Source: Nanobdellota archaeon (GTDB lineage Archaea > Nanobdellota > Nanobdellia > Woesearchaeales > JBHPFW01). Taken from it: a stretch of 64,000 nt of DNA. The first letter of the stretch is position 1, and every line of letters begins with the position of its first letter. Below are positions 2,359-64,000 of this stretch, piece after piece. A program made the position numbers and the translations under genes. The notes under the pieces were generated by a model. It searched no databases. It had not been told where the DNA came from and worked only from the letters and a program-made list of their open reading frames with translations. The stretch covers positions 1,536 through 65,535 of the forward strand of contig JBHPFW010000005.1 of assembly GCA_042571645.1 (NCBI GenBank), written 5' to 3'.

Positions 2359-3108
2359 TTATAAATATTGCGTGAATTGCTTTTTCAACTTCCCCACAGC
2401 AAAATCAGCTATTGGCTTTAAATTAAGAATATCTTCTTCATTATACTCTGCCAGCATTTCCAAATAAGCTTTATCACCAGTTGCTTTCCAGCATCTCCAT
2501 AATTCTGCAGCATCATCTCCGCCAACATACTTTAAACTCTCAGGACGTTTGATCCCGAGTTGTTTCTCAATATTTTTCAAGCCACCACTCAAGCCAACCT
2601 TTCTGCAAACATGCATTAAATCCATGTGCGGAATATCAAAATCTATGCGGAAGTATCTTTTCAGCACAGGAACATCAAAACTTCTGCCATTGAATGTGAC
2701 AAGCAATTTGTATTTGGCTAACTCTTTCTTGAGGGATTTAATATCTAAATTAATATCTCTTATCATTATTTTTGAATCATAACCATCACTTAGCCCAACT
2801 ACAGTGATATTTCCATAATAACTGCAGGTTTCTATGTCTAGAAATATTGCTTCATCTTTGAACTGCTCATATAATCTCCAATGTTCTTTCATTGGCAAAA
2901 GGTTTGTGAAATATTTAGAATTATCCTCTTCTAAATTCTGCTCAGCACTCTTGATTATTTTATCACAAGCATATTTTTTTTGCCTGGAAATGCCCTTAAT
3001 ATCTTTTACACCCAGAAAGTCATTCCAATCTTTAATGCCTTGCTTCCAGATATTCTGCTCTTTTTTCTGTGCTACTTTTGGAAAGATTTGAAAAGTATTT
3101 CGGATCAT
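2359..3108 (-). CDS. RNase H-like (DEDD) 3'-5' exonuclease, YprB/MrfB-like
   Basis: FLDIET, VTFNGRSFDVP, HMDL, GLKNIEKQLGI and YNEED motifs. Confidence 0.85.
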   Translation of the reverse strand: MIRNTFQIFPKVAQKKEQNIWKQGIKDWNDFLGVKDIKGISRQKKYACDKIIKSAEQNLEEDNSKYFTNLLPMKEHWRLYEQFKDEAIFLDIETCSYYGNITVVGLSDGYDSKIMIRDINLDIKSLKKELAKYKLLVTFNGRSFDVPVLKRYFRIDFDIPHMDLMHVCRKVGLSGGLKNIEKQLGIKRPESLKYVGGDDAAELWRCWKATGDKAYLEMLAEYNEEDILNLKPIADFAVGKLKKQFTQYL

Positions 3109-3153
3109 AGAAAAAGAAAGAACTTATTGGTTTAAATATGCTCCCCTCGTAAG

Positions 3154-3166
3154 TGTCCAGTGGGAA
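3154..3166 (-). promoter_or_regulatory. palindromic box 1 (TTCCCACTGGACA), 15 bp upstream of TATTTAAA
   Basis: Box end is 46 bp from the exonuclease ATG at 3108; the same motif and spacing occur at 22317, 36007 and 63038. Confidence 0.7.
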
Positions 3167-22316: not shown

Positions 22317-22329
22317 TACCCAGTGGACA
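22317..22329 (+). promoter_or_regulatory. palindromic box 2 (TACCCAGTGGACA), 15 bp upstream of TATAAAAA
   Basis: TATA at 22345; ATG at 22375 is 46 bp from the box end. Confidence 0.7.
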
Positions 22330-22374
22330 AGTACAGCCCAGAAGTATAAAAATAAGCCCTACAACCAATTTAGC

Positions 22375-22653
22375 ATGCAAAAGCTTCTAATCCAAAAGAA
22401 AATTCTAAGAAAGTTAATATCTATGAAACCTCACAAATGGGGTAATTCTCATACAGAAGAAAAGAATCTTTTCAAAGGTTTGCCAAGTCATTTAAGAGGT
22501 AATAAAATAGTCAATAATGCAATAAAAGAACTATATCAATTAGAATTTCTAACAAAACTAAAGAAAACAGGAGAATGGCATGTCTCATTGAATCCAAGAA
22601 AAAAGGAAGAAATATTTAGATTTTTAGATATAAATCACGATTATGAATGCTAA
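22375..22653 (+). CDS. small basic hypothetical protein, probable wHTH
   Basis: KWGNSHT...KGLP...AIKEL...VSLNP; clear TATA upstream. Confidence 0.7.
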   Translation: MQKLLIQKKILRKLISMKPHKWGNSHTEEKNLFKGLPSHLRGNKIVNNAIKELYQLEFLTKLKKTGEWHVSLNPRKKEEIFRFLDINHDYEC

Positions 22654-35550: not shown

Positions 35551-35961
35551 TTATTTATTAATCTCAACCAATTCCTCAAACAACAATCCTTTTCTTTTTG
35601 CAGAATCTAAGCTGATTACAAAATTTTCTCCTTCTGTTTTATCCAAATCTTCCAAATTCATAAAATACCAACTATTATCATCAACTGACTTATCAAACCT
35701 CACCCCAACCCATGATTCTGTGCCAAAGATCAATGAGAATTCTTTCAATTCCCCAATTTCTTTTTTTGTTAAGTACTGTTTTGCATTTCTTGTGGCTTTA
35801 CATTCTATAGCAAGCTTTCTAATCAGGTTTCCCGCGATTATATCTGGACAGGGATACTTTATAGCGCCAGAGCTTGGAGCTCTCATGCAAGCAAATCCTT
35901 CTGCCCACAACATGTGAATAAGTTCTCTTTCTGCATTTGTGCCTTTTGATTTTTTGTTCAT
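35551..35961 (-). CDS. hjc: archaeal Holliday junction resolvase
   Basis: KG..AEREL, RAPSSG, PDIIAG and IECK motifs. Confidence 0.95.
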   Translation of the reverse strand: MNKKSKGTNAERELIHMLWAEGFACMRAPSSGAIKYPCPDIIAGNLIRKLAIECKATRNAKQYLTKKEIGELKEFSLIFGTESWVGVRFDKSVDDNSWYFMNLEDLDKTEGENFVISLDSAKRKGLLFEELVEINK

Positions 35962-36006
35962 AACCTTATCTTAACACCTTTTCTTTTTAAACATCCCCAC
36001 CAGAAA

Positions 36007-36019
36007 TGTCCAGTGGAGA
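36007..36019 (-). promoter_or_regulatory. palindromic box 3 (TCTCCACTGGACA), 15 bp upstream of TTTAAAAA
   Basis: TATA at 35991-35984; hjc ATG at 35961 is 46 bp from the box end; a GGGG run lies in the spacer. Confidence 0.72.
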
Positions 36020-63037: not shown

Positions 63038-63050
63038 TTGCCACTGGACA
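63038..63050 (+). promoter_or_regulatory. palindromic box 4 (TTGCCACTGGACA), 15 bp upstream of TTTATAAT
   Basis: TATA-like sequence at 63066; the next gene is the LAGLIDADG ORF at 63200. Confidence 0.65.
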
Positions 63051-63199
63051 TTTGTGGTCACCAGATTTATAATACAATTACTATTTCTTTTTTGATATAT
63101 TCACATTTTAAATTCCAAAATAGTTCATTTCCAAATAATGATTTTTGTTCTCACTAAAAATCAATTAGGGAAATCTCACTCAATAAATAATGATTTAAA

Positions 63200-64000
63200 A
63201 TGGTTTTAAAAAATAATGATCAAAAAACTCAAATAAGCAAATTTCATATAAACCAGCTTCCGTCAGATAGGATTTTTATTTTGTTAGAACAAAAATTTCA
63301 TAAAGAAATATTCTCAAGAATTGAATATAAAAAGCTGCCCAAAATCAACAAGTTGTTTTTTAAAAATCATCTAAATGCACATACTGTTAAACAGTGGAAA
63401 AGCAGAAAACACTTCATACCGCTTTGGTTTCTAATTAAATTAAACAAATTGTTCCCCGAATATTCCATACAAAAAATAGAGAAAAACATTCTTGCCTATA
63501 GGGGGCCATCTACATCTGCCATAATAAAAAATCCTGATTTTCCAATAAAAGAAGACTCAAGATTATTAAAAATAATGGCTCATCTCCTCGGAGATGGTTC
63601 TGTGGGTGGCGGTTTTGGAAGTAACCTTCCTAAAGGAAAACAACATTCAGAATATAGAAATTTCACACCTGAATTATTAGATGGTTTCGAAAGGGATTTA
63701 TCTGTTTTTGGAGAAGTTCCAACAACTAAAAATTACGAAAGGGGAACATTAATAATTCCTAATCTTATCGGCTATATCTTAGAACATATTTACAATATAA
63801 AATTCGATACATTTAATTCAAGAATTCCTGAGAAGTTATTTGAAATTGAGCCTGAATTAATTGCTTTTTTCTTAAGAGCATTTGCTGATGATGAAGGACA
63901 TGTTTATGATAGCTCAATTGATTATTATTCAAATAACAAGAAACTTTTAACAGACATACTCTCCTTAATAAATAAAGCATTTACCAGAGTTAAGACTTCA
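63200..64000 (+). CDS. free-standing double-motif LAGLIDADG endonuclease-like protein (runs off window)
   Basis: Manual translation from ATG 63200 is open to the window end: MVLKNND...TVKQWK..KHFIPL (HTH-like)...IMAHLLGDG...FLRAFADDEG. Not in the ORF track. Confidence 0.85.
   Translation, partial: MVLKNNDQKTQISKFHINQLPSDRIFILLEQKFHKEIFSRIEYKKLPKINKLFFKNHLNAHTVKQWKSRKHFIPLWFLIKLNKLFPEYSIQKIEKNILAYRGPSTSAIIKNPDFPIKEDSRLLKIMAHLLGDGSVGGGFGSNLPKGKQHSEYRNFTPELLDGFERDLSVFGEVPTTKNYERGTLIIPNLIGYILEHIYNIKFDTFNSRIPEKLFEIEPELIAFFLRAFADDEGHVYDSSIDYYSNNKKLLTDILSLINKAFTRVKTS

Follow-up and report, generated by a model that had tools for sequence, protein, structure and literature searches.

A directional promoter element upstream of recombination, repair and replication genes probably defines a DNA-maintenance regulon in Woesearchaeales-type DPANN archaea

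In bacteria, the LexA/SOS box, the RDRM (radiation/desiccation response motif) bound by DdrO in Deinococcus, and the mycobacterial PafBC system each join a recA/radA-type recombinase, uvrB, helicases and nucleases under one cis-element, into which mobile genes plug as well; both LexA and DdrO repress transcription from palindromic operators. Archaea, to our knowledge, are without LexA, and the only archaeal damage regulon that we know to have been worked out, that of Orc1-2 in Sulfolobales, barely touches the repair enzymes themselves. The archaeal factors Ptr2, TFB-RF1 and EarA, which belong to Lrp, winged helix-turn-helix (wHTH) or other families and govern small, operon-level regulons, bind just upstream of the TFB recognition element (BRE) and TATA box at constrained distance and orientation and recruit TBP or TFB. 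We know of no factor of this type that controls recombination together with repair genes. Here we analyze a short promoter word with the consensus yCCACTGGACA, hereafter the box, which lies upstream of the Holliday junction resolvase gene hjc and of three further genes in a 64,000-nucleotide stretch of DNA from a Nanobdellota archaeon (the window; contig C5:1536-65535, GenBank JBHPFW010000005.1). The corresponding assembly (genome G000; 1.49 Mb, 55 contigs, 34% G+C) is 82% complete. A full-text literature search, supplementary files aside, returned no account of this motif or of a repair regulon in DPANN archaea.

In Sulfolobales, Orc1-2 leaves a footprint on the promoter motif 5'-ANTTTC-3', which is needed for DNA-damage induction (Sun et al. 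2018, PMC6061795). The targets named in the main text of that paper are the ups pili, the ced DNA import system and tfb3, and the word radA does not occur in it, the supplementary gene tables aside. As far as this main text goes, the two systems are alike in having a promoter-proximal motif upstream of the core promoter and a DNA-damage-related gene set, read there by a non-initiator Orc1/Cdc6 paralog, a kind of protein that is also a candidate here. They differ in the motif (ANTTTC against yCCACTGGACA) and in gene content, with pili, DNA import and tfb3 on one side, and radA plus classical repair and replication enzymes on the other. The archaeal origin recognition box (ORB) and mini-ORB are bound by Orc1-1 through its winged helix and initiator-specific motif (Samson et al. 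2013, PMC3607249). Like the ORBs described there, the box is an asymmetric site with a short dyad core, for which we propose monomer reading. Unlike ORBs, which flank an AT-rich unwinding region beside orc1, boxes stand singly or in tandem 13-15 nt from TATA, in ~20 scattered copies per genome. In the functional sense the box is not an ORB, and it is not a LexA box either. With the sites of Ptr2, TFB-RF1 and EarA it shares a place just upstream of BRE/TATA at fixed distance and orientation, and with the bacterial damage regulons a single cis-element over recombinase and repair genes, with prophage-like or mobile genes on the same signal. It differs from the latter in domain of life, promoter architecture and regulator families, and a LexA-type domain was not found in G000 at its 82% completeness.

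Within the window, CCA[C/G]TGGACA matches four times, compared with a mean of 0.11 in 100 dinucleotide-preserving shuffles, none of which reached four. These matches are the four intergenic copies, identical in position and strand, that an earlier, sequence-only reading of the window had listed (Table 1). The geometry described in that reading was likewise recovered: TGGACA and a TATA-like octamer are separated by exactly 15 nt at 4/4 sites, and at three of them an ATG lies 46 nt past the end of the box, corresponding to TATA+30 (positions 3108, 22375, and 35961). Messenger RNAs from these three promoters, including that of hjc, are probably leaderless or nearly so. The gene calls were upheld for Hjc (PF01870), the YprB-like exonuclease (PF13482) and the LAGLIDADG_3 protein with its wHTH tail, whereas the gene at 22375-22653, which had been called a wHTH protein, matches no family.

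The pattern persists when the scan is extended to the whole genome, where CA[CG]TGGACA occurs in 27 copies. An octamer with at least 7/8 A/T follows at +15 in 21 of these 27 words, against a genome background of 17%, and in none of the 28 occurrences of four composition-matched control words across the whole genome. Starts of TWTWWA are found at +15 in 15 words, at +13 in two, at +17 in two and elsewhere in two, and are absent in six. Chance or base composition as the origin of the box is ruled out by the shuffles and control words. Fixed spacing and enrichment, both anticipated from the window, were confirmed genome-wide ahead of radA, hef, hjc, and other repair genes. At all sites the box has a single orientation relative to TATA, always toward the gene. 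A 21-site count matrix yields the consensus given above, followed in G000 by tttrTGG and a purine-rich stretch, and the spacer is constrained as well (TGGACA tttrTGGy ... rGG TATWTAAA). With a weight matrix covering the upstream 19 nt, 20 sites reach at least 20.6 bits, of which 19 are TATA-linked seeds and one is without TATA; the matrix also retrieved two weaker TATA-linked variants, CACTAGACA at the end of contig C13 and CACTGGACT on contig C18. Weaker matches blend into noise, with 32 at 12 bits or more compared with 5, 15, and 20 in three shuffles. Altogether, G000 holds about 21 promoter-type sites. The idea that boxes serve as promoters of RNA genes was dropped, since no Rfam family was found at gathering score in the window or in regions L007, L011, and L015, and no tRNA in the window.

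The sequence-only reading had seen in the box a near-palindrome, TGTCCA-N-TGGACA, which would make it a possible operator for a LexA-like dimeric repressor. CCA-N-TGG does form a 3+3 dyad, and the hjc site reads TCCACTGGA. No enrichment was seen for the full palindrome, however: TGTCCANTGGACA at up to three mismatches gives 17 matches compared with 19.9 expected. The left arm is unconserved in the 21-site matrix, where only CC is kept before ACTGGACA and pairing is limited to CCA/TGG. Moreover, the box lies upstream of BRE/TATA instead of over the promoter, faces TATA in one orientation at every site and occurs as direct repeats in many genomes, and a search of the 82%-complete G000 for Peptidase_S24 (PF00717), the LexA-type domain, gave no match. 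A palindromic operator of this kind is thus very improbable. Direct repeats are frequent at radA, with a tandem duplication of the box at a 7-nt offset, as in CACTGGACACTGGACA, in many radA promoters. Sister orders carry related words 13-20 nt before TATA, ahead of the homologue of a small gene that precedes radA (three times CATTGGAC, twice CCCACTGGACAA, two to three times each ACTGGACAA and TTGACAT, and further CACTTGACA and CACACGACA); one word found twice at the same position, GCTCGTGCCA, is unrelated. The unit would be an asymmetric word of ~9-11 bp that ends in [T/G]GACA and is used in a single orientation, either singly or as direct repeats, a shape more in keeping with a reader that binds as a monomer than with a symmetric dimer.

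To follow the box across the order, we used the strict pattern CACTGGACA-N15-TWTWWAWW, which was matched in 28 of 41 genomes (41 families), with no match of a reversed-pattern control in any of the 41. In a second genome sample, with the spacer set to N13-15, 84 of 92 genomes of the order were positive compared with three among 28 genomes taken from the remaining orders of the class, and control matches amounted to three in total. At the radA operon, an exact box with TATA stands on the radA strand at 26 of 30 orthologous loci (30 genomes, 30 families), usually ~500 nt upstream of radA and ahead of the small pre-radA gene. The remaining four loci carry a one-mismatch box in the same geometry (CATTGGACA in G011 and G029, CACTGGTCA in G027, CCACAGGACA in G025), which brings the total to 30/30. 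This complete occupancy of the orthologous promoter, together with the variants in sister orders, argues for vertical inheritance under selection. The expectation that the box would be conserved upstream of hjc was not borne out, as only 2 of 30 orthologue loci have it (G000 and G012); G035 and G036 show possible variants, and hjc in G065 is also box-bearing. The hjc site is lineage-specific, and the conserved core target is the radA operon. The gene of HTH154 (P0002), a 154-aa helix-turn-helix protein, has a box upstream at 5 of 30 loci.

Box targets were then collected from seven relatives. Out of 60 strict-pattern sites, 59 were used after removal of one contig-end-clipped region without a box at the expected place, and the first downstream genes were sorted by BLAST clustering and by Pfam searches on representatives. 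Spacing between box and TATA is 13 or 15 nt in these genomes, and the first ATG typically lies 51-56 nt from the box start. Replication and repair genes follow at 22/59 sites, encoding the small protein plus RadA (3), YprB-like exonuclease (3, with orthologues behind the box in G032, G009, and G065), MCM (2), PriS-PriL primase (2), a ribonucleotide reductase of class-II type (2), Hef (2), a Cas4/Dna2-like nuclease (2), UvrB, Lhr, NreA, and RadC (1 each), Hjc (1, followed by TFE-alpha) and the DUF4186 unit (1). Boxes ahead of uvr and replication genes, which the sequence-only reading had foreseen, are seen in relatives, where uvrB, mcm, primase, ribonucleotide reductase, lhr, nreA, and radC are box-driven. 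LAGLIDADG proteins account for 19 sites, Bro-N proteins for seven, IS110 transposase, tyrosine integrase, the HTH154 orthologue and the Sua5 unit for one each, and genes of unknown function for seven. Across this order of DPANN archaea, which are uncultured and have reduced genomes, a single promoter word connects radA, hef, hjc, uvrB, lhr, nreA, mcm, primase, and ribonucleotide reductase, which suggests that DNA maintenance is governed by a regulatory circuit not described before. The word also provides, from sequence alone, a listing of DNA-maintenance genes that includes unknowns, namely the small pre-radA protein, DUF4186 and two tiny open reading frames (ORFs) before Sua5.

The gene set fits DNA damage and replication phase alike as a trigger. 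The box might mark a replication-phase programme (cell-cycle, G1/S-like) in place of a damage-induced, SOS-like response, a serious possibility that we nevertheless hold to be somewhat short of even. MCM, primase, and ribonucleotide reductase are box-driven in relatives, an Orc-type reader would link the programme to replication, and the gene set resembles the eukaryotic G1/S set. In G000, on the other hand, no replication gene was found behind the box, where repair and recombination genes stand, and Orc1-2 of Sulfolobales is damage-responsive.

Mobile-type genes (LAGLIDADG homing-endonuclease-like, Bro-N, transposase or integrase) follow 28 of the 59 sites in relatives, a share of about half that had not been anticipated. 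Box plus TATA could on this ground be a portable promoter cassette, spread by selfish elements (homing-endonuclease genes, Bro-N genes, viruses) and gained secondarily by host repair genes, with no dedicated host regulator; common tandem 7-nt duplications of the box, and a duplicated promoter copy at one G000 locus that is split by an insert, would be in keeping with it. Such a cassette is nonetheless highly unlikely. Different families carry the box at the orthologous radA-operon promoter without exception, and sister orders have it in variant form. Outside about -12 to +35, the 21-site alignment shows no sequence common to the sites, so that there is no repeat unit being copied, and a conserved 10-mer at fixed distance still requires a protein reader. 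A homing endonuclease would gain from being made together with the recombinase, and selfish nuclease genes may in this way have been wired into the host recombination programme.

Further genes behind the box in G000, next to hjc and the YprB-like exonuclease gene of the window, are given in Table 1. Among them are four small paralogs with 27-43% mutual identity that share K-W-G-N-S-H-T ... N-L-x-K-G-x-P. This small family has no Pfam or NCBIfam match, and no counterpart was found behind the boxes of the seven relatives examined.

Table 1 Features of the window and of genome G000. Positions are those of the window unless a contig (C) or region (L) is named.
Feature	Position	Strand	Basis or content
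Box 10-mer CCACTGGACA	3154-3163	-	pattern scan
Box 10-mer CCAGTGGACA	22320-22329	+	pattern scan
Box 10-mer CCACTGGACA	36007-36016	-	pattern scan
Box 10-mer CCACTGGACA	63041-63050	+	pattern scan
hjc promoter module (focal site)	35984-36019	-	box tcTCCACTGGACA 36007-36019, spacer 35992-36006, TATA-like TTTAAAAA 35984-35991
Promoter module of YprB-like gene	3131-3166	-	box ttCCCACTGGACA 3154-3166, spacer 3139-3153, TATA-like TATTTAAA 3131-3138
Promoter module of 92-aa gene	22317-22352	+	box taCCCAGTGGACA 22317-22329, spacer 22330-22344, TATA-like TATAAAAA 22345-22352
Promoter module of LAGLIDADG_3 gene	63038-63073	+	box ttGCCACTGGACA 63038-63050, spacer 63051-63065, TATA-like TTTATAAT 63066-63073
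hjc, Holliday junction resolvase, 136 aa	35551-35961	-	Pfam PF01870 Hjc, E 3e-25, 88.4 bits
YprB-like RNase H-fold exonuclease, 249 aa	2359-3108	-	Pfam PF13482 RNase_H_2, E 7.5e-35, 121 bits
Small 92-aa protein, no family above threshold	22375-22653	+	ORF; one of four box-driven paralogs
LAGLIDADG_3 protein with C-terminal wHTH, 384 aa (5' part)	63200-64000, to 64354 beyond window (full gene L017:736-1890)	+	PF14528, E 1.7e-5; weak HTH_5/TrmB matches at residues 325-371
117-aa protein of unknown family, then radA			box-driven; Rad51 family, 288 bits
hef			box-driven; DEAD, Helicase_C, ERCC4, HhH domains
TIGR03916-like radical-SAM "DNA modification/repair" protein with HhH, and 228-aa partner			box-driven; domain search
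DUF4186 gene			box-driven; domain search
Three LAGLIDADG_3 proteins with C-terminal wHTH (384, 392, 513 aa)			box-driven; domain search
487-aa HTH_45 protein			box-driven; domain search
Two HEPN/nucleotidyltransferase (MNT) pairs			box-driven; domain search
TumE-like/HVO_A0114 pair			box-driven; domain search
ParE-like gene behind 90-aa wHTH-like gene			box-driven; domain search
154-aa HTH protein (HTH154, P0002)			box-driven; no Pfam, NCBIfam or PDB assignment
97-aa protein ahead of 1,000+-aa ATPase-like gene			box-driven; ORFs
Two tiny ORFs ahead of flavodoxin and Sua5/YrdC genes	L007:3300-3790, contig C2, box at C2:26782	-	box-driven
Small paralog (88-96 aa), first	22375-22653	+	behind box
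Small paralog, second	L013:582-848	+	behind box
Small paralog, third	L004:3015-3305	-	behind box
Small paralog, fourth	L016:1493-1648	+	behind box
Orc-S, 357 aa	contig C2 (L159:690-1763)	-	divergent Orc1/Cdc6 paralog
orc1	L109:1447-2658 (region L109 is contig C19:8180-11443)	-	Orc1-1-type initiator gene, likely origin upstream
Third Orc1/Cdc6 gene, 397 aa	contig C14:12340-13530 (L110:1450-2643)	-	with Cdc6_C
Leader of small pre-radA gene	L015:3800-3850	-	hairpin element
Two box promoters of DUF4186 gene	L001:400-600 (contig C1:67400-67600)	+	165 nt apart

Directly observed are the element with its fixed geometry and enrichment, the conservation of the box at orthologous promoters throughout the order, and the set of genes behind it. 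We put at roughly 0.8 the probability that the box is a directional upstream promoter element defining a DNA recombination, repair and replication regulon in Woesearchaeales-type DPANN archaea, with selfish-gene riders. Several points weigh against such a reading. Membership beyond the radA operon is fluid, as the counts for hjc (2/30) and HTH154 (5/30) indicate, so that "regulon" here means a per-lineage set. Nearly half of the sites in relatives (28/59) drive mobile-type genes and 7/59 drive unknowns. In G000 itself, the toxin-antitoxin-like pairs, the small paralogs and the Sua5 unit are targets without an evident link to DNA repair.

In the mechanism that we propose, the box, at 13-15 nt upstream of TATA and, in leaderless genes, at roughly -46 to -56 relative to the start codon, would be bound by a sequence-specific protein, either one monomer or tandem copies, which from this place upstream of BRE/TATA would help to recruit TBP/TFB. 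Its core target would be the operon of the small beta4-alpha protein and radA, to which lineages would add, or from which they would lose, hef, hjc, uvrB, lhr, nreA, radC, the Cas4/Dna2-like nuclease, the YprB-like exonuclease, the radical-SAM repair gene, DUF4186, mcm, primase and ribonucleotide reductase. A box on LAGLIDADG, Bro-N, IS110 transposase, integrase and toxin-antitoxin-like genes would result in their co-expression with the host recombination machinery. Its place upstream of BRE/TATA and its single orientation suggest that the box is an activator-type site, and we lean towards an activator as the box-binding protein, leaving a smaller but considerable share to a repressor or a factor with dual action.

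The sequence-only reading had named an Orc1/Cdc6 paralog as a possible reader of the box. A suitable protein exists in G000, a divergent, conserved paralog that we call Orc-S and regard as the most likely reader, at odds just below even. Orc-S contains AAA_22 (PF13401, E 8e-16) and Cdc6_lid (PF22703, E 3e-11) domains, with GPPGVGKT and DEVD read in the translation, and profile search did not detect Pfam Cdc6_C in it. An AlphaFold2 (AF2) model (mean local confidence, pLDDT, 87; 33-sequence alignment) shows three C-terminal helices (280-291, 297-306, and 313-325) and a beta-hairpin within residues 280-347, and superposes end to end on DNA-bound archaeal Orc1, with template modeling (TM) scores of 0.74 for 2qby_A (355 columns) and 0.77 for 2v1u_A (360 columns). 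According to this model, the C-terminus is a winged-helix DNA-binding domain. Sequence matches were obtained to Cdc6-1 (2qby_A, 103 bits) and ORC1 (2v1u_A), and Orc1-1-type chains also rank first by fold. Unlike the Sulfolobales system, Orc-S has no sequence match at E<=1e-3 to the Orc1-2-type structures 1FNN and 1W5S, and its binding to the box is what we infer. With Orc1-2 of Sulfolobales as a precedent, Orc-S is a concrete candidate for a further Orc1/Cdc6 protein that serves as a transcription factor, which would be the second.

The box co-occurs with Orc-S. The Orc-S gene is single-copy in 112 of 121 genomes of the class; strict box and Orc-S occur together in 87 of the 121, the box alone in one, Orc-S alone in 25, and neither in eight. 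This co-occurrence is better than that of two other candidates, the pre-radA protein (P0001), which is missing in eight box-positive genomes, and HTH154, which is missing in seven. Neither of the two genomes of family f57 (99-100% complete) has Orc-S, the small pre-radA gene or a box at radA, and G053, from another order, lacks all three as well. Synteny was analyzed at 80 named Woesearchaeota loci, one of them counted twice, with ~217 kb scanned. A box with TATA lies on the same strand within 1.5 kb downstream of Orc-S at 29/80 loci, in the promoter of Orc-S itself at five (51-72 nt before ATG) and on the opposite strand at one, with none at 46. About 1-3 boxes would be expected in ~217 kb, as estimated from roughly 5-15 sites per Mb. 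The downstream unit at these loci is a conserved pair of tiny ORFs plus Sua5/YrdC, which in G000 is found 4.4 kb downstream of Orc-S.

Variation in the presumed recognition helix can be set beside that in the box. The third winged-helix helix of Orc-S reads Y-K-T-F-Q-R-K, with Q as residue 317 in 69 of the 75 Woesearchaeales sequences that were parsed. Wherever a parsed helix goes with a local CACTGGACA, residue 317 is Q (32 of 32 loci), compared with S, T, K, and Q at four CACAGGACA loci. Among the sister orders, four of five TTGACA lineages have H at this position, and six TGGACA-type lineages have Q, S, or R. Atypical helices occur in G011 (CATTGGACA; SYKSIQRK) and G027 (CACTGGTCA; SYKSFQRR). 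If Orc-S is the reader, the box would be a diverged origin recognition box, and the ORB-like core pointed out in the sequence-only reading does stand up to comparison with the ORBs of G000 itself. The ORBs GTTCCACAGGAAACAGGGGGG and TTCCACAGGAAAT share CCAC-GGA-A with the box, and the ORB TTCCACAGGAAA beside orc1 agrees with it at 8/11 positions for the consensus and 9/11 for the hjc site; the variant box of G025, CCACAGGACA, comes closer still to the ORBs. CCANTGG was not found in the orc loci L109 and L110. All of these links between Orc-S and the box are circumstantial.

Other observations speak against Orc-S. G106 (96% complete) and G010 (97%), both fragmented metagenome-assembled genomes, carry the box at radA with Orc-S not found at E<=1e-30, G124 has ACTGGACAA repeats without Orc-S, and in 25 genomes Orc-S is present without a strict box. 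No box lies within 1.5 kb of the Orc-S gene of G000. The covariation has exceptions in one CACAGGACA locus that retains Q, in one TTGACA lineage with S, and in G029 (CATTGGACA), whose helix is canonical. Common descent confounds co-occurrence and synteny as well as covariation, and Orc-S could merely be a replication gene within the regulon, i.e., a target.

The same regulon might be read by another protein, such as Orc1, the pre-radA beta4-alpha protein by autoregulation, a LAGLIDADG-wHTH protein in a WhiA-like manner, or another wHTH factor; we consider this possible though doubtful. Box-positive genomes without detectable Orc-S, such as G106 and G010, are in its favor. For Orc1 speaks that the box is ORB-like and the protein universal, but a protein present everywhere cannot explain an order-specific box. 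Of all box-driven genes, the pre-radA gene is the most constant, and it is lost together with the box in f57; its product, P0001, occurs in 102 of 121 class genomes, yet was not found in eight box-bearing ones, and its AF2 model (pLDDT 84), with four strands and a long helix, has no clear match to a DNA-binding factor. Assignment of P0001 as a PC4/Whirly-like binder of single-stranded DNA is unsupported, as Foldseek gave nothing at E<=1e-3 and only weak Pur-alpha and SSB rows, VIA-align a best Z of 5.3, to YbaB-like HP0035 among unrelated rows, and the ESM Atlas only clusters of "hypothetical protein". LAGLIDADG_3 genes with wHTH tails stand behind the box in every genome examined, but these genes are multi-copy and fast-evolving and fall into several BLAST clusters plus singletons, a poor fit to a box that is constant across ~70 families. 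HTH154, lacking in seven box-positive genomes, is equally conserved in box-less orders (110 of 121 genomes class-wide) and has the box at only 5/30 loci; it was rejected as the reader and is an occasional target. An alternative TFB as reader gained no support, a single TFB gene (312-aa frame, two cyclin repeats) being present in the 82%-complete G000.

A wider scenario, which we entertain with some reserve as less than likely, would connect these elements. An Orc1/Cdc6 paralog kept through the Nanoarchaeia-type class would have given up binding origins to become the master transcriptional regulator for DNA maintenance, acting through origin-derived words 13-15 nt upstream of TATA and switching the recombinase operon, repair helicases and nucleases, MCM, primase and ribonucleotide reductase in concert. 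Homing-endonuclease and virus-like Bro-N genes would have copied the box and thereby be expressed just when recombination is active, and the specificity for TGGACA, AGGACA or TTGACA would have drifted with one recognition-helix residue. If true, a master-regulator Orc paralog would be the archaeal counterpart of SOS or E2F, built from a replication initiator.

Two further Orc1/Cdc6 genes are present in G000. Upstream of the Orc1-1-type initiator gene orc1 lies the likely replication origin, in which the ORBs GTTCCACAGGAAACAGGGGGGT and ACTTCCACAGGAAAT plus an inverted copy flank an AT-rich stretch. The third gene, on contig C14, is patchy in distribution and possibly associated with a mobile element; it was rejected as the reader, with orthologues of >50% identity in only 7 of 121 genomes. 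Contigs harboring close relatives of Orc-S (55-63% identity) are often titled "uncultured Methanosarcinales archaeon"; as neighbouring records bear the names Woesearchaeota or Nanoarchaeota, this looks like a generic or wrong label.

In the tiny-ORF unit, an ORF of ~40-58 aa with ..TIExLFFxQI.., faintly reminiscent of a PCNA-interacting protein (PIP) box, is accompanied by one of ~42-58 aa ending in ..EEGFMxGYLxA. In relatives (L163-L181) the unit continues with Sua5/YrdC and a metallophosphoesterase, and it is often located just downstream of the Orc-S gene. Of the two box promoters preceding the DUF4186 gene, the first is interrupted by the ~50-nt insert with two hairpins, which splits TGGACA from spacer and TATA; it could represent a natural spacing mutant or an insertion resembling a miniature inverted-repeat transposable element. 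Finally, the 5' leader of the small pre-radA gene shows a class-wide element composed of UGAAAYAAAA, a short hairpin with a GNRA-like loop, GGAGG, and AUG, identified in G000 and in relatives (L020-L048, L141-L158). Its hairpins (UGCGAAAGCA, CCGAAAGG, GGGAAACC, UCCGAUAAGGA) carry stem changes that look compensatory, some genomes have two copies, and the leader may be a translational or autoregulatory RNA element.

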